A stretch of 64,000 bases of DNA from a phage: NCBI GenBank assembly GCA_018175075.1, contig GCA_018175075.1_4100.1; one strand, written 5' to 3'. Below are positions 2,236 to 45,498 of this stretch, piece by piece. Numbering within the stretch: position 1 is the stretch's first letter; each line of letters opens with the position of its first letter. The notes beneath the pieces were generated by a model that saw nothing but the letters and a program-made list of their open reading frames with translations, was not told the DNA's origin and ran no database searches. The position numbers were made by a program, and so were the translations under genes.

Positions 2236-2465
2236 TACTAAGTTTTGTTGTTGCACTATTGTTTATGTTTTATCCTACACTAGTAGCATTAGCCACTAAA
2301 CGACCGATTGTAGATATCACTACTGTATTCTTGCTAAACGTGGCATTAGTACTGGTTTCTATTATCATTCCCGTGAGCTTTACTGTTATTGATATTATTT
2401 CGGTATTACTCTTCGTAATCAGTTATCTTATGCTTATTGAAGAAAAACCAGTTGACAACCATTAG
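2226..2465 (+). CDS. small membrane protein, 79 aa
   Basis: hydrophobic throughout; overlaps upstream stop. Confidence 0.5.
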   Translation: MYLVLSFVVALLFMFYPTLVALATKRPIVDITTVFLLNVALVLVSIIIPVSFTVIDIISVLLFVISYLMLIEEKPVDNH

Positions 2466-2525
2466 TAGTACTGTATAATGGTTCCTGTAGTCTGAAACTT
2501 AACACTTAAACTTGAGGTAAAAAAT

Positions 2526-2852
2526 ATGCTATCAGTACTAATTTCAATTCCGTCTTTAATTCTGATTTGGCTTCTGGTTTACGAATGCTTTATTACTGAT
2601 GATAATGATAAAAAAGAGTTCTCTGAGTTGTTTATGCTTGATTCACCGATTGTGCGTATTTTCTATACAGTCGTTGTGGTTTCAGTAATTGTATGGGTTT
2701 TGAGTTTTATCTTCCCACTCGGTGCAGTAGTTAAAACTTTGGATTTAGTTGAGAACTTTGTTGCAATTATGTGGCTAATCAAAGCACTATTTGCAGGAAA
2801 TGTTAAAATTTGGATTGATATTATCAAATTCAAGTTCACGAATAAGATGTAA
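2526..2852 (+). CDS. membrane protein, 108 aa
   Basis: GAGGT RBS; multiple hydrophobic segments. Confidence 0.5.
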   Translation: MLSVLISIPSLILIWLLVYECFITDDNDKKEFSELFMLDSPIVRIFYTVVVVSVIVWVLSFIFPLGAVVKTLDLVENFVAIMWLIKALFAGNVKIWIDIIKFKFTNKM

Positions 2853-2876
2853 CAGTCAAAATACCTCTATAGTATT

Positions 2877-2913
2877 AAATACTTCTGTACATATATATAG
2901 TACAGAAGTATTT
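2877..2913 (+). terminator. long perfect palindrome (14 bp arms around ATATATAT), probable terminator
   Basis: AAATACTTCTGTAC...GTACAGAAGTATTT immediately after gene 2526-2852. Confidence 0.45.
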
Positions 2914-2930
2914 CTCGTTAGAGGTTTGTT

Positions 2931-3290
2931 ATGAAAAGTTATATAAAATTAATAGCACTTGTGTGTGCATTATTTTCATGTTTTAGTTATGGTGCAGCAG
3001 CAGAAACATATTGTCGTAGTACTAAGGGAACGTGGCATGTATTGACTAACGACCCTAGAAATGGTAAAAATATAGTTGTTGATGGCGTGATTTATCGTTT
3101 TAAAGTAGAAAGTATTATTGGTAATAAAAAAATCTCGACTTATAGAGATGATTCTGGTACATTAGCAAACGTAATATTAATTGTAGACCCAAGAACTGGT
3201 AATGGTGATATCTATATAGTAATTTACTTGGACTCATCGGTACGCCGTGACCTAGATATAGATAAATTGAACTTACACTGTGAAATATAG
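2931..3290 (+). CDS. secreted small protein (signal peptide), 119 aa
   Basis: N-terminal hydrophobic signal ending AAA/E; AGAGG RBS. Confidence 0.55.
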   Translation: MKSYIKLIALVCALFSCFSYGAAAETYCRSTKGTWHVLTNDPRNGKNIVVDGVIYRFKVESIIGNKKISTYRDDSGTLANVILIVDPRTGNGDIYIVIYLDSSVRRDLDIDKLNLHCEI

Positions 3291-3301
3291 GACTTAAAAA
3301 A

Positions 3302-3679
3302 ATGGTAAACACTATTTTACTTTTGTTGTTGAATATTCCAATTATTCTGTCTTTTTTAATTTCTATTTTTATGGCAGGATATTGTTTAGTTGCAGTAATT
3401 CATTTTATTTTAACAAACAAATATGTCCTAATTTCTAAGCTTGATTCTATTTTTGCTTGCGATTCAATGGCTTATAACTTATGGTTAATTTGTTCTTGCA
3501 TTATGGGAGTAACTTTCCTTCTGCATGTATTTGATGTCCTTGACCAAAAGTTCGTATACATCAGTACTGGATTGGCTCTTTATCCTGCTACGTGGTACTT
3601 GATTTACGTTGGTGATATATGGTATAGTACTTATAAAGAATATCAGTACAAGAAATCACTTAACGTTGGAGGAAAATAA
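3302..3679 (+). CDS. membrane protein, 125 aa
   Basis: ORF with several hydrophobic helices. Confidence 0.5.
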   Translation: MVNTILLLLLNIPIILSFLISIFMAGYCLVAVIHFILTNKYVLISKLDSIFACDSMAYNLWLICSCIMGVTFLLHVFDVLDQKFVYISTGLALYPATWYLIYVGDIWYSTYKEYQYKKSLNVGGK

Positions 3680-3681
3680 TC

Positions 3682-4032
3682 ATGAAAATTATTTTATTTT
3701 TTGTATGTATGTTAATGTGTGGATTGTCATATGCTGAACCATTGGAAGGTTTAGTTTGTACAGATGGTAATATTAAACATATCTATCAAGGTGATAGTGA
3801 CGATCGAGATATTGTATATATTGATGGACAATCATATACGTTTGTTAAAGAGCATACAGTAGGCGACATTAGCTTCACTGAGTTTTCTAACGACACAGAC
3901 CCTAACTTCTTAGCGTTTATTGAAGTAGATGTATATGAAGATAGTAATGGCACACAATATGCTAAATTAGTTATGATGCGTCGTGGTGCTAAAGAAACTA
4001 GTTTTGGTGGCTTGTGTAAATATAAGGATTGA
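3682..4032 (+). CDS. secreted small protein (signal peptide), 116 aa
   Basis: GGAGGA RBS; signal peptide; similar architecture to 2931-3290. Confidence 0.55.
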   Translation: MKIILFFVCMLMCGLSYAEPLEGLVCTDGNIKHIYQGDSDDRDIVYIDGQSYTFVKEHTVGDISFTEFSNDTDPNFLAFIEVDVYEDSNGTQYAKLVMMRRGAKETSFGGLCKYKD

Positions 4033-4036
4033 TATT

Positions 4037-4228
4037 ATGTTGATTTATCAAAGTGATAATATTCGTGTTATGCAGCATCCCTACTTACAAATCTTTGATG
4101 TGCAGCAGTATATGGAAGGTGATGACCCAAGAACCTATGGTCGTAAGTATGATTACTTCACTGTAAAGCAGTGTAATAATATTAACGAAGTACGACAATT
4201 AGTTCAAGAACTTCAAAACAAAGGTTGA
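4037..4228 (+). CDS. hypothetical protein, 63 aa
   Basis: ATG with AAGGA RBS; stop lies inside terminator stem. Confidence 0.45.
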   Translation: MLIYQSDNIRVMQHPYLQIFDVQQYMEGDDPRTYGRKYDYFTVKQCNNINEVRQLVQELQNKG

Positions 4229-4246
4229 CTTCGGTCAGCCTTTTTT
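4223..4246 (+). terminator. rho-independent terminator
   Basis: GGTTGAC-TTCG-GTCAGCC hairpin followed by TTTTTT. Confidence 0.7.
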
Positions 4247-4282
4247 GTTATAATTCTCTTAATAAATTAGAGGATTTTAATT

Positions 4283-4723
4283 ATGTATGTATATCGTTTT
4301 GAACTTAAATTTAGTTACATTGAACCTAACTTAGATCCTGCACGAACTGTAGGTCCGTTTGCACGGTATTCAACCAGATACAGTACTAAAAATGGATTTG
4401 ACCGTTTGCTCATGACTACACCTTCTCAATTCCAACCTGAACCAACTGAGGATGGGATCTATTCAATCAAAAGTGGATGGGTATTTGGCTGTCAAAGTTT
4501 GAAAGATTTGTTCAGATTCTTCACTATGGACTTAGGTAAATTGCATCGTGCTGGGTTTGCTATATCTGTATATGAAGTTCCAGACCACCATGTAGACATT
4601 GGTCGTAATCAGGTTCAGTACTATTGCGGTAGTGCTAAATTAGTTCGTATCATGTCAGTTAAGGAAGCAAAGGATGAGTTCCGACAAAGTAAAAGAGAAA
4701 CACATGAGGTAATATATGGATAA
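4283..4723 (+). CDS. hypothetical protein, 146 aa
   Basis: ATG with AGAGGA RBS. Confidence 0.55.
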   Translation: MYVYRFELKFSYIEPNLDPARTVGPFARYSTRYSTKNGFDRLLMTTPSQFQPEPTEDGIYSIKSGWVFGCQSLKDLFRFFTMDLGKLHRAGFAISVYEVPDHHVDIGRNQVQYYCGSAKLVRIMSVKEAKDEFRQSKRETHEVIYG

Positions 4724-5060
4724 AACTCAAATAGAATTAAAGAAATTTGTTTCATTCTATCTTCCTGATGACCCACGTAATTCACAAAAAGATATTGAAT
4801 ATTATAATATCCTATCTAAACAGTTAATGAGAAAGTTTCAACAGTGTTTAACTATATTCAATACAGATGGAAGACGTAGATACCGAATCGTTTCAATGAA
4901 TGATGAAAACGCAAATTTCTTTGATTACGATGTGGTTTTTAGAGCATATAATGATGATCGTATAAAATTAAATTATGATCAAATTATACTTGACCTGAAT
5001 GTTATATGTGTTATAATCACTCACGTAGCCGAACTTAATGGTTTTAAAGAATGGTATTGA
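4716..5060 (+). CDS. hypothetical protein, 114 aa
   Basis: ORF overlapping upstream stop. Confidence 0.5.
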   Translation: MDKTQIELKKFVSFYLPDDPRNSQKDIEYYNILSKQLMRKFQQCLTIFNTDGRRRYRIVSMNDENANFFDYDVVFRAYNDDRIKLNYDQIILDLNVICVIITHVAELNGFKEWY

Positions 5061-5074
5061 ATAGAGGATAACAT

Positions 5075-5341
5075 ATGAAGCTTAAATTACAATATAATGG
5101 ATTTACTTTACGTAATGATACTGAATTTATTAATCGTTCTCCTGGTGCTGAACTGTTTTTACGAGAGATGAACATTCCTTTCATCATTACTACAGTGGGC
5201 GACCGTGAAGTTCTACAATACGCAGAGCATCCGATCATTGATGTTCCTTGGTACTCTGAGCATATGTACATGGATATGGCACGTCGCTACAACTGTAAGT
5301 TCGTAGTTGAAGGTGATAAAATTACAGTCGAATTTAAATAA
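5075..5341 (+). CDS. hypothetical protein, 88 aa
   Basis: ATG with GAGGA RBS. Confidence 0.5.
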   Translation: MKLKLQYNGFTLRNDTEFINRSPGAELFLREMNIPFIITTVGDREVLQYAEHPIIDVPWYSEHMYMDMARRYNCKFVVEGDKITVEFK

Positions 5342-5352
5342 GGTAAATTAAA

Positions 5353-5646
5353 ATGATCAGTACTTCAGTTAATGAAAGCATCGTCGCTGACGTAGAAATG
5401 GTTAAAGAATGTGCAGATGAAACTCTTCGTGATATGTACATTAATGATTTAATTACTGAATACGGTAGTCGTGGTGTACACGAATTTATTCGTTTAAGTG
5501 GAGAGTTGATGAAAAATCGAATTCGTATGAAGCTTAACGTACATCCAAAAGCATGGGCATTTACATTAAAATACGCAGAAGATATTGTTAATTTGCGTCG
5601 AACTGAAGTATATGAACGTTTGCACAATGGTATGTTAGATAAATGA
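5353..5646 (+). CDS. hypothetical protein, 97 aa
   Basis: ATG with AAGG RBS. Confidence 0.5.
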   Translation: MISTSVNESIVADVEMVKECADETLRDMYINDLITEYGSRGVHEFIRLSGELMKNRIRMKLNVHPKAWAFTLKYAEDIVNLRRTEVYERLHNGMLDK

Positions 5647-5655
5647 TTGTAAAAT

Positions 5656-5682
5656 AGGAATTCTTAAATGAATTCCTTTTTG
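5656..5682 (+). terminator. rho-independent terminator
   Basis: AGGAATTC...GAATTCCT hairpin followed by TTTTT. Confidence 0.6.
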
Positions 5683-5698
5683 TTTATAAGGTATAGTA

Positions 5699-5920
5699 AT
5701 GAAATATATAGTACTTGTACTGATATTATTCAGTACTGTTGTAAGTGCTAAACAAAAAGAATATGTTAAATGTATAAATTATGAAGAGAAATATGTTGAA
5801 ACATATAAAAAAAGTATAATTAAAAACGTTTCGATTACTAACAGAGCAACAATCATTGTACTTAAAAATGGGTTAATTATGCTATATAAACCACACGTTA
5901 AATGTGAAATTATTAATTGA
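5699..5920 (+). CDS. secreted small protein (signal peptide), 73 aa
   Basis: AT-rich ORF with N-terminal signal peptide. Confidence 0.45.
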   Translation: MKYIVLVLILFSTVVSAKQKEYVKCINYEEKYVETYKKSIIKNVSITNRATIIVLKNGLIMLYKPHVKCEIIN

Positions 5921-5927
5921 GGAAATT

Positions 5928-6500
5928 ATGAATCGTAAAGGTCGTTTTAAAGTATCAAAAAAGAACAAAAGTTCTAGGTTTAAACCTATTGTTTTAACAG
6001 TTAAATCTAACAAAGATTTAACTGCACTTAGTAAAAAGATAATTTCATCTAAGATTGAAGTATCATACGTAAATTCATTAAAATATATGAATGTCAAACC
6101 ACTGGACCAACTCATTTCACTTATATTTGAACGTAATGATTTTGAGATATCAGTAGATGATTATAGAGCCTATAATGCTGGTTTCATTAATGTTACTTGT
6201 AATAAAAAACTAACTGAGTTGGAAAATTTGTCATGTATAATAAATCTAGATAAAGGTGTTGTGAAGTACCATTTTGTACATTTCACTAATATCAATAATG
6301 GAATGGGTGTACAATCCAGACCTATAGTGCCTACGTGTGATGTTACTAAATTAGCAAAGCTCAATGATGAAGAATATTTTCAAGAAAGCATTGTAACTGA
6401 GCATTTAGATGATATAATAGCTACTTACAAAGAATGCATATGGGTGTTGAATGCTATAAAACCTAAATTGTGTTTAATGAATATTGTTCGTGATTTATGA
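5928..6500 (+). CDS. hypothetical protein, 190 aa
   Basis: ATG with GAGGAA RBS; track ORF at 5904 begins on GTG. Confidence 0.45.
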   Translation: MNRKGRFKVSKKNKSSRFKPIVLTVKSNKDLTALSKKIISSKIEVSYVNSLKYMNVKPLDQLISLIFERNDFEISVDDYRAYNAGFINVTCNKKLTELENLSCIINLDKGVVKYHFVHFTNINNGMGVQSRPIVPTCDVTKLAKLNDEEYFQESIVTEHLDDIIATYKECIWVLNAIKPKLCLMNIVRDL

Positions 6501-6513
6501 ATGGGGAATCGTA

Positions 6514-6957
6514 ATGAGTTGGGTAAATGTTAATAGTATTGAACTTAACGAACAAGATATTTTTGCATTTGTAAATTTAACTAATAACACAGTACTAAAA
6601 GGGCGTTTGTTCAGTGCTAGTGATGGGTACAAATGGATCTCTTTGATGGATGATAGTGGTGTGATTTATAATGTAATGCAATTACCCCAATGGGTATATA
6701 GTAACACTGCTGACGATGTTCTTACCGCAGTTATGCGTGAGTTTGAAAAACTCCCAGGTGGTGATATCAAAAACAAAGTTTTTAATGCAGAACGTAAAAA
6801 TTATACAGCACAGCAATTGGAATCCCTTGCCATTGCTGCTTATCAAGCTGCTATTAAGAAGCCAGAGTGCGTTATTCTTAAGTATGTACCAGACTTAAAA
6901 CTTACGTTGGAAAACATGGATGCATTCATTTTTACATCTGAACTTGATCAGTACTAA
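6514..6957 (+). CDS. hypothetical protein, 147 aa
   Basis: ATG with GGGGA RBS; track ORF at 6484 begins on TTG. Confidence 0.5.
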   Translation: MSWVNVNSIELNEQDIFAFVNLTNNTVLKGRLFSASDGYKWISLMDDSGVIYNVMQLPQWVYSNTADDVLTAVMREFEKLPGGDIKNKVFNAERKNYTAQQLESLAIAAYQAAIKKPECVILKYVPDLKLTLENMDAFIFTSELDQY

Positions 6958-6964
6958 TTTAACT

Positions 6965-6994
6965 TTGGGACAACCATTCTTATTATGATATAAT
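6965..6994 (+). promoter_or_regulatory. sigma70-like promoter
   Basis: TTGGGA, 18 nt, TATAAT followed by GTTTTA. Confidence 0.45.
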
Positions 6995-7072
6995 GTTTTA
7001 TGTCATTCGATATAAATGACAACGGAACTATAAATATTATAGTAAAATTTATCTCTTATAGGAGTTATAAAA

Positions 7073-7456
7073 ATGGTTGATAAATGGAATAAGAAAGATC
7101 CATCACATGATGTTGATATTTCTGGTCTAGACAATGCACATAAGCACAAGTATCTAGATTCACTAGGTCTTCTAAAACCAGACCAAAGTCTTGCACATGA
7201 TCGTCCATCCCGTGAAAAAGCATTTAGCCTAGAATCACTAGGTCATGAGCTTAATCGTGTGTTTGAGGATCACCCAATCTATGTACGTGATATTATCGAG
7301 AAACTTAAAGTAACTCCTAAAGAGCACTTTAAAGCAACTGTACACTCTGCATTCCGTGCATTACATGAATCTCTAAAGAAAACTCACAATCTTCGTAAAA
7401 TTCATGATGAAATCGTGAATGCAATCGAAAGTGAAAAACATAAGTTCAAGAAGTAA
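7073..7456 (+). CDS. hypothetical protein, 127 aa
   Basis: ATG with AGGAG RBS; shares SLGLL motif with 8800-10059 product. Confidence 0.55.
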   Translation: MVDKWNKKDPSHDVDISGLDNAHKHKYLDSLGLLKPDQSLAHDRPSREKAFSLESLGHELNRVFEDHPIYVRDIIEKLKVTPKEHFKATVHSAFRALHESLKKTHNLRKIHDEIVNAIESEKHKFKK

Positions 7457-7460
7457 TAAA

Positions 7461-7487
7461 AGGGTTGACTAAGGTCAGCCCTTTGTT
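7461..7487 (+). terminator. rho-independent terminator
   Basis: AGGGTTGACT-AAG-GTCAGCCCT hairpin then T-rich. Confidence 0.65.
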
Positions 7488-7523
7488 GTATCATAACTTC
7501 TCAATATAACTGAGGTATCATAT

Positions 7524-7637
7524 ATGCAAGGTTTGAAATTTGTAGTTGCTGCACTCATCGCTGCTGTTGTAGTGGGTACAGTATGTTATTCAATTGACAC
7601 CTATATCAATACACCTAGTGTTGAACAAACCAAATAA
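7524..7637 (+). CDS. small membrane peptide, 37 aa
   Basis: short ORF with GAGGT RBS and hydrophobic core; below the track size cutoff. Confidence 0.3.
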   Translation: MQGLKFVVAALIAAVVVGTVCYSIDTYINTPSVEQTK

Positions 7638-7645
7638 GGGATATC

Positions 7646-7909
7646 ATGGCTGAAACATTATCACTATATGCGTTAGTACTGTTATTTGTCGGATTTCTTC
7701 CCGCACTCATTACAGCCATTCGTGTTGTTAAACATGAAGCTGCATTGATTGTATGTAGTATTGGGTCGAACATTCTATTGTATTTCTTTTTGACAAATAC
7801 TATTGTACTGTTTGCTTTCTTTATCATGATTCTGTGGGTACTTGTAATTCTCGGATTCTTCATTTGGTCATTGGTTGATCCTAAGAAAAAATCAGGAGAA
7901 GTGAAATGA
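7646..7909 (+). CDS. membrane protein, 87 aa
   Basis: ATG with AAGGGA RBS; two hydrophobic helices. Confidence 0.5.
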   Translation: MAETLSLYALVLLFVGFLPALITAIRVVKHEAALIVCSIGSNILLYFFLTNTIVLFAFFIMILWVLVILGFFIWSLVDPKKKSGEVK

Positions 7910-8202
7910 AATTAATTATAGCAATGATAATGTGTTTGGCTTTCCCTGTACTGGCTACTCCTAATCTGGACTGCACACTGTTGCGTTCAGATGGTGACAC
8001 ACTTGAAATCAACACATATGAACTCTTTGGTCCAAGTGTAGTGGAGAATGAAACCACCTACAATTTCAAAGCTATTGACTTTGAAGGTAATGTTCCAGTA
8101 CTAACTACAATGACTATTGACAAAACTACTTTACTCGGACGAATCACCACACAACGCGGAGAAAGTAAAACATTCACAGCGAAAGCTGACTGTAACTACT
8201 AA
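7906..8202 (+). CDS. secreted small protein (signal peptide), 98 aa
   Basis: ATGA overlap with upstream gene; signal peptide; two Cys. Confidence 0.5.
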   Translation: MKLIIAMIMCLAFPVLATPNLDCTLLRSDGDTLEINTYELFGPSVVENETTYNFKAIDFEGNVPVLTTMTIDKTTLLGRITTQRGESKTFTAKADCNY

Positions 8203-8223
8203 TGGTATAGTACAGTGAAAATA

Positions 8224-8246
8224 GGGTTGACTTCGGTCAACCTTTA
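8224..8246 (+). terminator. rho-independent terminator
   Basis: GGGTTGAC-TTCG-GTCAACC hairpin then TTTATATA. Confidence 0.6.
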
Positions 8247-8252
8247 TATATA

Positions 8253-8795
8253 ATGGAAGAAATAAACATGGAACGTTGGAAATTAATTCCTGATTATGAC
8301 TATTCAATTTCTGATCATGGAAGAGTAAGAAACGAACAAACTGGATATATAAGTTGTGGATTTAAAAATAAAGATGGGTATGTGAAGGTCGATTTGTATC
8401 GCAATTCTGTGAAAAATAGAAAGGCGATTCATCGACTAGTAGCTGAAGCATTTTTACCACCACCCACACAGAAACAGTTACAGTGGGCGAGTAGAACAAA
8501 GAAAAAAGTTGTTCACATAAACCATAAAGATTGTAATAGAAGTAACAATCACTATTTGAATTTGGAATGGAACACAGCATCTGAAAACGTACTATATTCT
8601 TATTCACATGGTAACGCAACAACTAATCGTGGTGCTGCTGTGTTGACATGGGAAATTGTAAGAGAAATAAGAAAAGATTATAATGATAATTATAATGATG
8701 TGATAGAATATGCACGAGAAAATTGTAATAAATACCGTGTATGTAAAAAAACAATACGTCGTATTTTATACAATCAAACATGGATAGAGGATTAA
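8253..8795 (+). CDS. HNH homing endonuclease (NUMOD4-like N-terminus plus HNH motif)
   Basis: N-terminal WKLIPDYDYSISDHGRVRN and HNH-type INHKDCNRSNNHYLNLEW; free-standing between a terminator and the next gene; start may be the ATG at 8268. Confidence 0.75.
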   Translation: MEEINMERWKLIPDYDYSISDHGRVRNEQTGYISCGFKNKDGYVKVDLYRNSVKNRKAIHRLVAEAFLPPPTQKQLQWASRTKKKVVHINHKDCNRSNNHYLNLEWNTASENVLYSYSHGNATTNRGAAVLTWEIVREIRKDYNDNYNDVIEYARENCNKYRVCKKTIRRILYNQTWIED

Positions 8796-8799
8796 AAAT

Positions 8800-10059
8800 A
8801 TGCCACAAGATAATGGGGATATGAAACATCGTAATGGTGGACTAGTACAACACTCGGATAAATGGGCCGACCGAAATCGTCGCAAAAATAGTTATCAAGC
8901 AGGACAAGGTTCACGTGGTTCCAGAAACCAAGGAACGGGACTTGCTGGTAAGGCAAACGCAGAAGCAGGTGAAGTTAAGAGTACTGAGAACATGACTGAG
9001 CTAGAAAAGCTACGTTATGTTAATTCATTGGGACTTCTTAATGCTACACAAAAACAACGTCTAGCTGATATGGAACGTGAAGAAAAAGAAAAGTCTGCTC
9101 CTGCGAAAGAAGAACCAAAACAAGAAGCACCAAAGGCGGTTAACCCTGTCAAAGAACTGTCTGATAAGTTAGGTAAGATTTTTGCTAATAAACCACAACT
9201 TATCCAAGGTATTGTGAAAGAATTGCAATCTGTACCTAAAGAAGAATTAAAAGTCAAAGCACAAGCTGTACTTGATGCAATGAGTGGAAATACCAGTACT
9301 GAACCAACTGAAGTATTCAGTACTATAATGCGTGCACTTGAAGGTACGCAACAAGGTGATGTGCCTGCACAAGAGGAAGTAAGTCTTGAAAGCGTACTTA
9401 AAACATTTGATAGTATTGGTAAAGAAGACCGTGCTAATGCTCAACAAGTTAAGAATGTACTAGCTAAGTTAGAAAACCGTCTGGAAGGTAAAGACGATAA
9501 GATTAAATTAGTATCTGATGCAGTTAACGATGCACTTAAATCTTATGTACAAGGTGAAAAGAGTCGTTTTGTAACTGCAATGGATGCTGCATTCAATACT
9601 ATGAAAAAGTATGAAGCTGATCATGGTGAGAAGGTTACACGAGATGGTTATCTGATGCGTGATGATGAAGAAGGTGCAGTAGAACAGAATGATGTTCATT
9701 CAGACGAAGAAATTGATGACATGGAAGCTGAACTGTCACAAGACCGCCAAATGACTGAAAAATCCCATAACGAACTACAGAAATTAATGCAATGGGTTGC
9801 AGATGTTGGTGAAAAAGCTGGTGCTGATAAGAAGAGTATAAACCGAAATCTTAGTTGGATTAAAGATAAAGTTGGTAACAACGCTCGTAAACTACAAAAA
9901 GCGTGGACTGATGTAGTGAATGGTGCTGTTGACATTGATGTTGAATCCGGTGAGGCATATGATTATGCATTGACTACACTTGATGACTCTTTCCGTGATT
10001 ACGAAAATGGAAATGTAACTCCTTGGGAAAAGGATATCATGAGCAAATACGGTAAATGA
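8800..10059 (+). CDS. hypothetical acidic protein, 419 aa
   Basis: long ORF with AGAGGA RBS; Glu/Lys-rich. Confidence 0.55.
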   Translation: MPQDNGDMKHRNGGLVQHSDKWADRNRRKNSYQAGQGSRGSRNQGTGLAGKANAEAGEVKSTENMTELEKLRYVNSLGLLNATQKQRLADMEREEKEKSAPAKEEPKQEAPKAVNPVKELSDKLGKIFANKPQLIQGIVKELQSVPKEELKVKAQAVLDAMSGNTSTEPTEVFSTIMRALEGTQQGDVPAQEEVSLESVLKTFDSIGKEDRANAQQVKNVLAKLENRLEGKDDKIKLVSDAVNDALKSYVQGEKSRFVTAMDAAFNTMKKYEADHGEKVTRDGYLMRDDEEGAVEQNDVHSDEEIDDMEAELSQDRQMTEKSHNELQKLMQWVADVGEKAGADKKSINRNLSWIKDKVGNNARKLQKAWTDVVNGAVDIDVESGEAYDYALTTLDDSFRDYENGNVTPWEKDIMSKYGK

Positions 10060-10069
10060 TAAAACAAAA

Positions 10070-10096
10070 GGTTGACTTCGGTCAGCCTTTTTTTTG
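10070..10096 (+). terminator. rho-independent terminator
   Basis: GGTTGAC-TTCG-GTCAGCC hairpin then T9. Confidence 0.7.
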
Positions 10097-10131
10097 TAAA
10101 TACAAAAGAGGAATTAAGAAGAGGGATTACA

Positions 10132-10383
10132 ATGAAAAAATATATTATATTTGGAATTGTATTATTTTCCAGTACTGCTTATGGTGCAGATTATCATTGC
10201 TCCGTAGCAAGGCAGGATTTCAGAAATGGGGAGTTCTATACTACCTCATACACAAAAGGAATAATACACGACACCGACAGAACTATTGGATTTAATGTGT
10301 TTGACAACAAAGATTCATATACTTCAGGTATACTATCTGAGCATAAGACTGATGTAATGGGAATAGAAAAAGAGTTCCGGTGA
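10132..10383 (+). CDS. secreted small protein (signal peptide), 83 aa
   Basis: ATG with AGAGGGA RBS; signal peptide. Confidence 0.5.
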   Translation: MKKYIIFGIVLFSSTAYGADYHCSVARQDFRNGEFYTTSYTKGIIHDTDRTIGFNVFDNKDSYTSGILSEHKTDVMGIEKEFR

Positions 10384-10393
10384 TTCAGTAGTA

Positions 10394-10717
10394 ATGTGCA
10401 ATGACATTGAAAGTACTAAAACAATTTATTATAATAATGAACGTAACTATCGTTTTCATAATTTAACCACAAATAAAAGTTTACTATTTTACAATTGTAA
10501 AGAAGTAATACTCCCATCAGACAATAGCTGTACTCCAACTAATCAACCCCCAGCACAATGTAATACTCCCTCTGAACCTGATAAAAATAAAAAAGACAAA
10601 GATAAAGATAAAAAAGAAGACAAAAAACCTTTAAAAGATAAAAAGAAAGATAAAAAACCTAATCCGTTTAAAAATAATAAACCAGCACAACCCGATATGA
10701 CATGTAAAATAAAATAA
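10394..10717 (+). CDS. hypothetical protein with KDK-repeat low-complexity tail, 107 aa
   Basis: ORF with weak RBS; Lys/Asp repeats. Confidence 0.35.
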   Translation: MCNDIESTKTIYYNNERNYRFHNLTTNKSLLFYNCKEVILPSDNSCTPTNQPPAQCNTPSEPDKNKKDKDKDKKEDKKPLKDKKKDKKPNPFKNNKPAQPDMTCKIK

Positions 10718-10726
10718 GGATATATA

Positions 10727-11146
10727 ATGAAAAAGATTTTTTTAAGTATTATTTTAGTACTTTTTAGTTTTAATGTATATGCAGCAGATGCTAAACAGGT
10801 TGCAAATACAGTAAAAGATGTTATAGTAGATAATGCTCCTACATTAGAGGAAATTGGGGTAAAAACTTGTGATATAGTAATATATAATTTAGTTAATGAT
10901 GAACGAGTTATGTTGAATACGTATGAACAAGTAGTCCCATTGGTTGAATCTGGTGATGCTTTTAGCTTTACATATAAAGTTAAATTAACAGGAGGGGTTG
11001 AAGTTAATCTTGACATTGATACCGCTTCAGTACTAAAAGATAAACTAGGATATGTGTTCAATCGTATTCGTGAAGAAGGTCATCTTAAGTATGTTTATGA
11101 AAGTAAAATACTAAAACGTGCAATAGTTATAGAAAACTGTAAATGA
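10727..11146 (+). CDS. secreted protein (signal peptide), 139 aa
   Basis: ATG with AAGGA RBS; signal peptide ending VYA/AD. Confidence 0.55.
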   Translation: MKKIFLSIILVLFSFNVYAADAKQVANTVKDVIVDNAPTLEEIGVKTCDIVIYNLVNDERVMLNTYEQVVPLVESGDAFSFTYKVKLTGGVEVNLDIDTASVLKDKLGYVFNRIREEGHLKYVYESKILKRAIVIENCK

Positions 11147-11154
11147 TAATAAAA

Positions 11155-11179
11155 GGGTTGACTTCGGTCAGCCTTTTTT
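11155..11179 (+). terminator. rho-independent terminator
   Basis: GGGTTGAC-TTCG-GTCAGCC hairpin then TTTTTT. Confidence 0.7.
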
Positions 11180-11215
11180 GTTATGATGTTGGTATTAACT
11201 ACAGAGGATAAAGTA

Positions 11216-11857
11216 ATGACTAAGCAAGACATATTCAAAACTTTAATTGACATTTTGCGTCCATCAAAAACTCGTTGTGCGATGGAGTTTGATATTCCTT
11301 ATGCTGAACGCGTAATCTTTCCACAAGTTAAAGCTGCTGGACTTACTTTGCTTGGAATGGGGATGTACTCTGTAGTAGTTGAACATAAAAACTATCATGG
11401 ACGTGCATTTAAAGTAACCACTTCACGCTGGGATGGTTTTCGTGCTTATGCAAAGTACTGCATTGAAAACGCAGGAACCAAGTTTCTTCCAGTGATCTAC
11501 AGTGCCAACGAACAAGGAAACTTTGGATGGTATGAGATGGACAAGTACTATCCTATAATTAAACAAAAAAATAATTATGATGACTTTGTTAGTACTAAAA
11601 TTGGAGATTTATATTCTTATGCACATGCTGGTCAGTACGCTACTTCAGTGAATGATATGCGTGGAAATTCTGAAGAGATTGCTATTGCAACGGTCGCTGC
11701 TAACATCATGAAAGAGTTTCACGGGCGTTTTGTACCAGACATTCATTCAAGTAATGTGATGATGGATAAAGATGGCAATGTATTCATTACTGATCCTCTT
11801 TCGTGTGATGTACGTAGAGAAATACCAGTTACTGAAGAAGATCCAGTTTTTTATTGA
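11216..11857 (+). CDS. putative atypical protein-kinase-like protein, 213 aa
   Basis: GAGGA RBS; catalytic-loop-like DIHSSNVMMDKDGNVFITD shared in pattern with products of 14993 and 56147. Confidence 0.4.
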   Translation: MTKQDIFKTLIDILRPSKTRCAMEFDIPYAERVIFPQVKAAGLTLLGMGMYSVVVEHKNYHGRAFKVTTSRWDGFRAYAKYCIENAGTKFLPVIYSANEQGNFGWYEMDKYYPIIKQKNNYDDFVSTKIGDLYSYAHAGQYATSVNDMRGNSEEIAIATVAANIMKEFHGRFVPDIHSSNVMMDKDGNVFITDPLSCDVRREIPVTEEDPVFY

Positions 11858-12202: not shown

Positions 12203-12541
12203 ATGGAACAATATTTTGAATTAATAAACAAAGTATCATTTTATGTAGTATCTTTGGTTTGGGTGTATTATATGTTTTGCTATATTATTGCATTCTTCCG
12301 ATATACTACTTTATATGAACGTATCTACTATGATGCCCCAATTTCATTCTTGATGTTTTGTGCATGTACGTGGGGAATATTAGAAGTACTGATATGTGGG
12401 TATAGTACTGATGAATTAAATCTGGTATCGGTGTTGACTGGGTTTTCATTTGTTGTTATGATAGCTGCCGTTCCAGTATGGTTGTTCTTTGGACTAGTTC
12501 ATCGCATTGATATATGGCGTTCTAATATCCCTGAAAAGTAA
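12203..12541 (+). CDS. small membrane protein, family A paralog
   Basis: hydrophobic; C-terminal R.N.PE(K/R) tail shared with next two genes. Confidence 0.55.
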   Translation: MEQYFELINKVSFYVVSLVWVYYMFCYIIAFFRYTTLYERIYYDAPISFLMFCACTWGILEVLICGYSTDELNLVSVLTGFSFVVMIAAVPVWLFFGLVHRIDIWRSNIPEK

Positions 12542-12544
12542 GGA

Positions 12545-12892
12545 TTGGAAATGATTTATTACACTAACATGTTTGCCTATGCTGTTGCTTGCATTTACAT
12601 TGTTTACTTCTTATTCGGTGGAGTACTGTGCTTCTTTAAGTACAAAACGTTGTTCAACCGAATGTACCCAAATCATCCAATTGTAGTTGTACTTTTGATT
12701 CTTTCAGTTTCTCAAATAATCGTTGAAACTACAATGGGTATCAGTAGTGTACATTATAGTTTTGGCACTATAGTAATTATTACTATGCTTATTGCATACA
12801 TTTTAGTACTTGGATATGGTATCTTTGGTAATATTGGTATGAAAATGTATCATCGAATTAAAACATTACGTGATAATCTACCGGAGCGTTGA
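12545..12892 (+). CDS. small membrane protein, family A paralog
   Basis: paralog of 12203 gene. Confidence 0.55.
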   Translation: MEMIYYTNMFAYAVACIYIVYFLFGGVLCFFKYKTLFNRMYPNHPIVVVLLILSVSQIIVETTMGISSVHYSFGTIVIITMLIAYILVLGYGIFGNIGMKMYHRIKTLRDNLPER

Positions 12893-12893
12893 T

Positions 12894-13238
12894 ATGTATA
12901 ATTTGAACCTAATCTCATATATTATAACAACACTGTTTACATTCTATGCCTTTGTTGGTATAATCCTACTGTACTTTAAATTTTATAAAGTGTTTAACCG
13001 TTTCTATCCTTCAATGGAGAATGAGTTTTTCTTTGTGTTGTACGTAGGTTACACATTAATGGCTACATGTTTCACTGTAGCCGATGGTGTCATCGGCATT
13101 AAAACTGATTCCCCAAATGGTAGTACGCTGGTTGCATTTATTCTTACTGGATTCCTTGCAACTTATATTGCCTTCATTACAACATGGTCAGTGGTTGAAT
13201 TTCTCTTGCGACTACGAAAGAATATGCCGAATCGATAG
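12894..13238 (+). CDS. small membrane protein, family A paralog
   Basis: paralog; ATG 1 nt after upstream stop. Confidence 0.5.
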   Translation: MYNLNLISYIITTLFTFYAFVGIILLYFKFYKVFNRFYPSMENEFFFVLYVGYTLMATCFTVADGVIGIKTDSPNGSTLVAFILTGFLATYIAFITTWSVVEFLLRLRKNMPNR

Positions 13239-16070: not shown

Positions 16071-16095
16071 GGGTTGACTTAGGTCGGCCCTTTTG
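16071..16095 (+). terminator. rho-independent terminator
   Basis: GGGTTGAC...GTCGGCCC hairpin then TTTT. Confidence 0.65.
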
Positions 16096-45198: not shown

Positions 45199-45498
45199 AT
45201 GAAAATTGCAATCATCGCCCTGGCTTTATCTGTTTCCTCTTTCGCTGTTAATGCGTCGTTAGATGTAAGTAGTGAAAAATTCATTCAGTGCACTGTAGCG
45301 ATGACCAATGAAAGTACTGGCGAGATTGTTTTAAAGGATTTAGAGATCCAGCCAGAAGCATTTAAAAACGGGCCGTTCCATGAAGAAGACGAAAAAGGTA
45401 GCACGACAATTTATTACGATGCAAGTACTAAACGCGGTTCGGTCACTGTTATGGATACTGAGAAAGTAACGCATTCCGGCGTTATTAATTGCCGTTGA
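45199..45498 (+). CDS. secreted protein (signal peptide), 99 aa
   Basis: AAGGA RBS; signal peptide ending VNA/S. Confidence 0.55.
   Translation: MKIAIIALALSVSSFAVNASLDVSSEKFIQCTVAMTNESTGEIVLKDLEIQPEAFKNGPFHEEDEKGSTTIYYDASTKRGSVTVMDTEKVTHSGVINCR

Follow-up and report, generated by a model that had tools for sequence, protein, structure and literature searches.

What purpose do the small secreted proteins of a jumbo coliphage serve? A stretch of phage DNA of 64,000 nucleotides (NCBI GenBank assembly GCA_018175075.1, contig GCA_018175075.1_4100.1; hereafter the window) encodes seven of them, six between positions 2931 and 11146 and one at 45199; the genes are named here by their start positions. 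A first-pass annotation of the sequence had noted signal peptides, read the paired cysteines as a likely disulfide and suggested a part in superinfection exclusion or receptor masking. The pattern of cysteines is genuine and far from chance, and Sec export, cleavage by signal peptidase I (SPase I) and a periplasmic location are well supported for all seven by their sequences. We tentatively favour, at somewhat short of an even chance, non-virion periplasmic proteins that act as tight binders against a second attack (superinfection exclusion), with hydrolase inhibition as the activity of g2931 and g3682.

Megablast of positions 2500-11500 matched 49 phage records. The closest relative is Escherichia phage vB_EcoM_phAPEC6 (hereafter phAPEC6; 99.2% identity over 86% of the query), followed by JP4, SP27, G17, PBECO4 and 121Q, all jumbo myoviruses of about 350 kb. 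The genus was Asteriusvirus in every record whose taxonomy was read, and sequence comparison places the window in an Asteriusvirus jumbo coliphage. The region 2500-11500 is AT-rich (32-37% GC) and all its genes lie on the plus strand.

The seven open reading frames (ORFs) are present, on the plus strand, at the positions and with the sizes (73-139 amino acids, aa) that had been claimed for them, each with an ATG start and a Shine-Dalgarno-like motif upstream. They are g2931 (2931-3290; 119 aa, of which 95 in the mature protein; homologous to RaK2 ORF265), g3682 (3682-4032; 116 aa, 98 mature), g5699 (5699-5920; 73 aa, 56 mature), g7906 (7906-8202; 98 aa, 81 mature), g10132 (10132-10383; 83 aa, 65 mature), g10727 (10727-11146; 139 aa, 120 mature with cleavage at VYA|AD, 125 in the numbering used below for the cysteines) and g45199 (45199-45498; 99 aa, 80 mature). 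Signal peptides were predicted for all seven by a heuristic with four demands: an n-region that is not negative, 10-26 uncharged residues in a row that include a strongly hydrophobic core (h-region of at least 10), a cleavage site with small residues at -3 and -1 at residues 14-35, and no later hydrophobic 19-mer; the absence of such predictions, which would have spoken against the first-pass annotation, was not observed. Applied to all ORFs on both strands of the 64 kb, the heuristic yielded exactly seven 'MK...' signal-peptide proteins without a later membrane segment, and its remaining matches are membrane proteins with several transmembrane (TM) segments or weak antisense ORFs. The predicted cleavage sites of the seven are SYG/AAA|E, SYA|E, VSA|K, VLA|T, AYG|A, VYA|A and VNA|S. 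Neither the seven nor their orthologues contain a conserved lipobox, and the cysteines inside the h-regions of g2931 and g3682 are unconserved in orthologues or lack the required -1 residue. Cleavage by SPase I and a soluble periplasmic product are therefore predicted. Lipoproteins and spanins were rejected as candidate identities, given the lack of a conserved lipobox and membrane partners (described below) that are multi-TM proteins without a periplasmic coiled coil.

Six of the seven proteins carry one cysteine near the mature N-terminus and one near the C-terminus, at mature residues 4 and 93 of 95 (g2931), 8 and 94 of 98 (g3682), 8 and 52 of 56 (g5699), 6 and 79 of 81 (g7906), 12 and 79 of 80 (g45199) and 34 and 124 of 125 (g10727; 29 and 119 in the 120-aa mature form). 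The first cysteine lies at mature residue 4-12 (34 in g10727), the second 2-5 residues from the C-terminus, and the spacing of 90 residues in g10727 equals that of g2931. The exception is g10132, with a single, N-terminal cysteine. Cysteine makes up 1.5% of residues, and 12 of the 116 other putative proteins of the window have one within their last six residues; at this background rate, the binomial probability of a C-terminal cysteine in at least six of seven proteins is 8e-6. Every orthologue found, down to about 30% identity, retains both cysteines, whereas most other positions vary. That the conserved pair forms a disulfide is a well-supported prediction.

AlphaFold2 was applied to mature g2931 and g45199, using alignments of paralogues plus orthologues. 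The g2931 model (predicted local distance difference test, pLDDT, 79.6; predicted template modelling score, pTM, 0.69) has eight β-strands, with Cys4 within strand 1 (residues 2-6) and Cys93 within strand 8 (residues 88-94). The g45199 model (pLDDT 88.4, pTM 0.71) consists of six long strands plus a short helix; its first strand contains Cys12 and its last strand Cys79. Both are predicted to be compact meander β-barrels. Since the cysteines sit in the first and last strands, a disulfide formed in the oxidising periplasm would staple the barrel seam. The disulfide suggested earlier is thus supported by the conservation of both cysteines and, in the two predicted models, by the strands in which they fall. 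The plan recurs at smaller size in g5699, which has the two terminal cysteines but is too short for an eight-stranded barrel.

The fold of the modelled g2931 barrel is generic: its two top structural matches are unrelated barrels (2qmi and Cap15). Five periplasmic hydrolase-inhibitor barrels (MliC/PliC/ACP) are also among its neighbours, where they count among the matches of lowest root-mean-square deviation and have most of each target covered. The BFVD model of the 116-aa slurp01 protein, taken as the g3682 orthologue, matches the g2931 model with a TM-score of 0.68; the significant matches of the BFVD fold search are this slurp01 protein and unnamed proteins, none of known function. The g45199 model resembles the binding barrels of the surface lipoproteins hemophilin, NHBA, fHbp and TbpB, and the g45199/g7906 pair, unlike g2931, does not retrieve the MliC/PliC/ACP inhibitors.

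MliC/PliC and ACP are eight-stranded barrels in which a β1-β8 disulfide is preserved, and ACP inhibits lysozyme despite the absence of the MliC/PliC motifs SxSGAxY and YxxxTKG (PMC5507604). MliC/PliC, Neisseria ACP and Brucella PhiA are the closest known counterparts of g2931 and g3682, with which they have the architecture in common and the sequence signatures not. An eight-stranded antiparallel β-barrel is what the model predicts, and the conserved cysteines fall within the first and last predicted strands, a likeness to the β1-β8 disulfide at the level of strand assignment only. Unlike MliC/PliC, g2931 and g3682 are phage-encoded and confined to RaK2-like jumbo phages.

At the level of sequence the proteins are related in pairs. 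That g2931 and g3682 are paralogues is clear from sequence comparison: they align end to end with few gaps, cross-match in reciprocal tblastn at 1e-3 to 1e-4 and across PHROGs at 0.0025, and reach an hhalign probability of 93.6% (E 2e-7) and a shuffle z of 4.1. For g7906 and g45199, sequence supports a second paralogous pair, by full-length alignment at 25-27% identity with both cysteines in register and a shuffle z of 4.3; the hhalign signal is weak. The remaining 19 family pairs were not significant by hhalign and shuffling, the hhalign probability being at most 5% for all but g2931-g3682. A single superfamily of all seven was rejected on present evidence, as profile-profile comparison and shuffling detect only the two paralogous pairs.

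The families are small and narrowly distributed. Full-length membership of PHROGs 25709, 27330, 31284, 28901 and 31669, small families without known function, was found for g2931, g3682, g5699, g10132 and g45199, respectively (E 1e-50 to 1e-64); no PHROG was found for g7906, g10727 or g10394, an ORF that adjoins g10132 and is considered below. Pfam gave no significant family for any of these eight ORFs. A word-indexed search of 5.8 billion proteins with g3682 returned six matches, all of them close relatives whose records are from phage or carry an E. coli label. When a g2931/g3682 profile was run with HMMER exhaustively against 1.84 billion cluster representatives, only nine proteins reached E <= 1e-3; all nine have a signal peptide and both cysteines, and the two most divergent of those traced lie on metagenomic contigs with RaK2-like phage gene order. 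The g2931/g3682 family is therefore without detectable bacterial or wider phage relatives. Sequence and profile searches of the PDB gave no match, and literature searches found nothing on these proteins. One ENA protein of 191 aa (P0031) has the C-terminus of g7906 as its last 46 residues and an unrelated lipoprotein-like sequence as its first 145; it is probably a chimeric metagenome assembly.

Virion proteins were considered and rejected. For g10727, g10132, g5699 and g3682, the homologues in phAPEC6 (gp032c, gp034c, gp040c and gp047c) are missing from the list of phAPEC6 virion proteins, whereas their neighbours gp035c and gp037c (homologous to window 8800-10059 and 7073-7456) are on it. 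This test covers the four mapped homologues: the g2931 homologue is unannotated in phAPEC6, g7906 is absent there and g45199 is unmapped, so the absence of these three from the proteome list is uninformative.

The secreted genes also stand out in how they evolve. Identity to phage vB_Ec-M-J is 41-78% for the secreted proteins, 44-59% for two membrane partners and 79-95% for nine cytoplasmic neighbours (secreted versus cytoplasmic, Mann-Whitney p = 0.0016). By sequence comparison, the secreted proteins diverge faster than their cytoplasmic neighbours, and lineages gain, lose or exchange cassettes. The g7906 cassette (7463-8242, plus strand) comprises a 37-aa single-TM protein (7524..7637), an 87-aa protein with three TM segments and g7906. 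phAPEC6 lacks this cassette, and the phages that match it, at 97-99% identity, belong to a lineage with only about 60-80% identity elsewhere. The gene of the 37-aa protein contains a recombination junction at about 7560-7570: the sequence is phAPEC6-like upstream and, from there to 8242, of vB_Ec-M-J type, bringing with it the 87-aa protein and g7906. On this comparison the g7906 cassette was acquired by recombination. A second cassette (10070-11173, plus strand), with g10132, g10394 and g10727, is absent from phage UE-S1, in which the kinase gene lies directly 3' of the virion-protein gene.

Both cassettes are bordered by copies of an 18-nt hairpin, GGTTGACTTCGGTCAGCC, which occurs ten times on the plus strand of the window against none expected. 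This intrinsic-terminator stem contains a -35 box, TTGACT, and is followed after 16-18 nt by a TATAAT-like -10 box; we take it to resemble the 'promoter-early stem-loop' shuffling elements of T4-type phages. Copies at 7463..7480 and 8225..8242 form the left and right borders of the g7906 cassette, and copies at 10070..10087 and 11156..11173 those of the g10132-g10727 cassette, the last standing ahead of a T7 gp0.7-like kinase gene. The copy at 4223..4240, followed by TATAAT, ends the g2931-g3682 unit and starts the next; five further 18-nt copies on the same strand begin at 16072, 49485, 53480, 56748 and 59012.

Small membrane proteins accompany the secreted ones. A multi-TM protein gene lies directly 5' of each of three secreted genes, all on the plus strand: a 108-aa protein with about three hydrophobic segments (2526..2852; RaK2 ORF264 homologue, phrog_31401) ahead of g2931, a 125-aa protein (3302..3679; RaK2 ORF266 homologue, phrog_31707) between g2931 and g3682, and the 87-aa protein with three hydrophobic segments (7646..7909), whose stop overlaps the g7906 start (ATGA). 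The unit membrane-secreted-membrane-secreted at the head of the region is conserved as ORF264-267 of Klebsiella phage RaK2, a member of the genus Alcyoneusvirus. A perfect sigma-70 consensus match (TTGACA-16-TATAAT, 12/12; 2452..2479, plus strand) precedes it in the window, and downstream of this match lie several 11/12 matches and the kinase gene at about 11.2-11.9 kb. From these features the region looks early. In vB_Ec-M-J the homologue of the 87-aa protein is labelled 'immunity to superinfection', the sole database label in the direction of exclusion; GenBank record OQ718158 puts it on these small membrane proteins (window 7646-7909; L003 3716-3952 and 5741-6004). The Imm profile phrog_1039 does not match significantly (E = 4.9 for 7646-7909, E = 0.02 for EcMJ_535), and no Pfam superinfection-immunity (Imm) family is among the matches of the 87-aa protein at E <= 0.1. 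The label is unsupported statistically and was not counted as evidence.

The suggestion of superinfection exclusion or receptor masking is plausible: it is compatible with the non-virion status, the nearby sigma-70-like matches, the membrane-protein neighbours, the mobility, the fast divergence and the predicted g2931 fold. We propose that host-type promoters would drive early expression of the secreted genes and that the proteins, as blockers that bind tightly within the periplasm, would protect an infected cell from a second attack. For g2931 and g3682 the most likely mechanism would be an MliC/PliC/ACP-like inhibition of a peptidoglycan hydrolase. A candidate target would be the tail-associated lysozyme in virions of this phage group, which would make these proteins functional analogues of T4 Spackle with another fold. 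A plausible hydrolase target exists, because Gp241, a lysozyme-family protein of 96 kDa, is present in phAPEC6 virions; a GH24 T4-type lysozyme is encoded in the genus as well. The membrane partners may act like T4 Imm or anchor the complex.

T4 Spackle (gp61.3) is an early, small periplasmic protein with a cleaved signal peptide and one disulfide, and it blocks the tail lysozyme of superinfecting phage; it is α-helical, and T4 also has a small inner-membrane partner function, Imm (PMC7677548). The proteins described here likewise adjoin small membrane proteins, but all-β barrels are predicted for the two modelled ones where Spackle is a helical bundle. Of the seven, only g45199 matches the Spackle family (phrog_1586), at E = 0.2 and over residues 1-40, which are its signal peptide. 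The seven look like uncharacterised, lineage-restricted proteins that resemble a known theme of small phage periplasmic protection proteins, here with an MliC/ACP-like stapled barrel.

Several observations count against an exclusion function built on hydrolase inhibition. (i) Only two of the seven have models, built on alignments that are shallow (12-14 sequences), and the predicted staple follows from the strand positions of the cysteines and not from an S-S distance. (ii) The g45199 model has no lysozyme-inhibitor match in its top 60, and hhalign and shuffle tests do not unite all seven by sequence. (iii) None of the eight proteins matches Pfam MliC at E <= 1, SxSGAxY and YxxxTKG are absent from the family alignments (a 'YTKG' in g10132 lacks the required spacing), and profiles of two families retrieve no PliC, MliC or ACP chain from the PDB at E <= 10. 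Having the architecture without a Pfam match, motif or PDB profile match, g2931 and g3682 are therefore not to be filed as MliC members. (iv) Promoter-like sites in the region number 65 against 68 expected from shuffled sequence, so that early timing follows only from the few near-perfect sites. (v) In JNE01, g7906-like genes occur without a membrane partner. (vi) No annotation or experiment links any of the seven to exclusion.

Binding of another kind would leave much of this picture intact. Small phage-encoded envelope lipoproteins such as T5 Llp and the Cor type prevent superinfection, and the barrels described here could, like Llp on FhuA, mask a receptor or channel: they would bind an outer-membrane receptor on its periplasmic side, or a constituent of the DNA-entry route, and block adsorption or genome entry. 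A periplasmic, non-virion, fast-evolving and cassette-borne protein from an early-type region would suit such a role, and the g45199 model resembles the binding barrels of surface lipoproteins rather than lysozyme inhibitors. Llp and Cor have a lipobox cysteine, however, whereas none of the seven has a conserved lipobox and membrane anchoring of that kind would be missing; nor do they match Llp or Cor by sequence or PHROG, or any known masking protein in Pfam, PHROG or BFVD. Masking is unlikely, if the least so of the alternatives.

The barrels might instead serve the takeover of the host envelope, binding small ligands in the manner of lipocalins or avidin, or inhibiting periplasmic proteases, autolysins or stress sensors of the host, so that the envelope is stabilised during infection. 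Such housekeeping would explain poorly the patchy presence of the genes, their swapping by recombination and their fast divergence, and no ligand-binding motif was identified; we regard this role as rather unlikely. Alternatively, the seven may have no function in common and be unrelated secreted ORFans in which a terminal disulfide is the common stabiliser of small periplasmic proteins. The tests of relatedness, which link two pairs and leave the other 19 not significant, agree with this, as do a g5699 too short for the barrel and a g10132 that lacks the second cysteine. This reading seems decidedly unlikely.

Lysis-timing control would give the secreted proteins and their membrane partners a role as antiholin/holin-like or endolysin-restraining pairs, comparable to T4 RI and T. 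It draws on the three secreted genes that directly follow a small multi-TM gene, one of these pairs with overlapping stop and start, and the MliC-like fold would suit an inhibitor directed at the phage's own GH24 lysozyme. Well-studied lytic phages have their lysis genes among the late genes, whereas the secreted genes lie in an early-looking region with sigma-70-like matches beside a T7 gp0.7-like kinase; the proteins show no similarity to RI, holins or spanins in Pfam or PHROG and no lipobox, and several are dispensable in close relatives. This makes a function in lysis timing very unlikely. Immunity to bacterial weapons, in which the barrels would neutralise periplasmic peptidoglycan-hydrolase toxins of competitors (type VI secretion effectors, colicin M or pesticin-type bacteriocins) and keep the cell alive until lysis, is most improbable: the similarity is weak and at the level of fold only, no immunity family is linked by sequence, and we know of no precedent in a lytic phage.

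One member of the set raises a question of its own. Ten nucleotides 3' of g10132 and in the +1 frame lies g10394 (10394..10717, plus strand), which encodes 107 aa with five conserved cysteines and a Lys/Asp/Pro-rich tail, and has no signal peptide and no obvious ribosome-binding site. The g10132 frame ends in the phage's rarest arginine codon, CGG, followed by UGA, and is the sole CGG-ending gene among 123. Together the two ORFs hold six cysteines (1 + 5). The TT(C/T)-CGG-TGA junction, its spacing and the frame relation are kept in vB_Ec-M-J, although the halves are there only 65% and 50% identical, and no unsplit g10132-g10394 homologue occurs among 5.8 billion proteins. Because the junction is conserved and an unsplit homologue is lacking, a programmed +1 frameshift that joins g10132 and g10394 into one exported six-cysteine protein is possible on sequence grounds. 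The candidate site is at window 10366-10396, and the peptide spanning the fusion would be ...EKEFR-DSVVMCNDIESTK.... Re-pairing of the tRNA from CGG to GGU would be poor, which counts against a frameshift, and when the profile of the hypothetical fusion was compared with those of the other families, the results were mutually inconsistent. A recently broken gene was rejected, as there is no unsplit homologue and both halves are conserved in a lineage of 50-65% identity.

Taken to its furthest, the superinfection-exclusion proposal would have RaK2-like jumbo phages carry a shufflable arsenal of disulfide-stapled periplasmic barrel inhibitors, often with small inner-membrane partners, as a multi-target exclusion island. 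In it, g2931 and g3682 would be the first phage tail-lysozyme inhibitors of MliC/PliC/ACP fold, an independently arisen counterpart of Spackle, and a conserved +1 frameshift at CGG-UGA would append the Cys-rich, Lys/Asp/Pro-rich tail of g10394 to the exported g10132 domain. We consider this extended version rather unlikely as a whole. More than 80% of jumbo-phage genes lack a known function, and part of this fraction resolves here into a class with a cellular address, the periplasm, and a structural principle, the predicted staple from first to last strand. Exclusion or hydrolase inhibition, if true, would explain how these phages defend the infected cell and would be a second, independently evolved solution beside T4 Spackle. 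It would also be relevant to phage cocktails with Asteriusvirus phages, because the phages of such a cocktail might exclude one another. Being small, stable and easy to express, the proteins make the hypothesis directly testable.

The surroundings of the secreted genes hold further features. The T7 gp0.7-like protein kinase (11183-11857; phrog_15752, E 1e-96) lies directly 3' of the last secreted-protein cassette. Immediately 3' of the hairpin copy at 8225, an HNH_3/NUMOD4 homing endonuclease (8253-8795) has no counterpart in the seven related loci compared, and the virion-protein gene that follows it (8800-10059) differs from its homologues at the 5' end. This gene and 7073-7456, as homologues of phAPEC6 gp035c and gp037c, are virion-associated genes within an otherwise early-looking accessory region; both match PHROGs 16530 and 20398 and therefore look mutually related. 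The label 'chromosome segregation protein' on gp035c has no Pfam support for the window homologue. Loci of related phages encode small proteins with a true lipobox (LLTA|C or LLSA|C) and 3-5 cysteines (L005 5882-6127 and 6495-6770; L006 6430-6675; L007 5988-6239), about 4 kb upstream of the g2931 homologue and outside the stretch equivalent to the window; predicted lipoproteins thus also belong to the accessory region. Both GC skew and ORF orientation flip at about 20000 and 38500, with the plus strand coding from 1 to 20 kb, the minus strand from 20 to 38.5 kb and the plus strand again thereafter. At 12203-13238 lie at least three paralogous genes in tandem, whose products of about 112-122 aa have three hydrophobic segments apiece and end in '...LPE(K/R)' or 'MPNR'; they are a further expanded family of small membrane proteins in the secreted-gene region.

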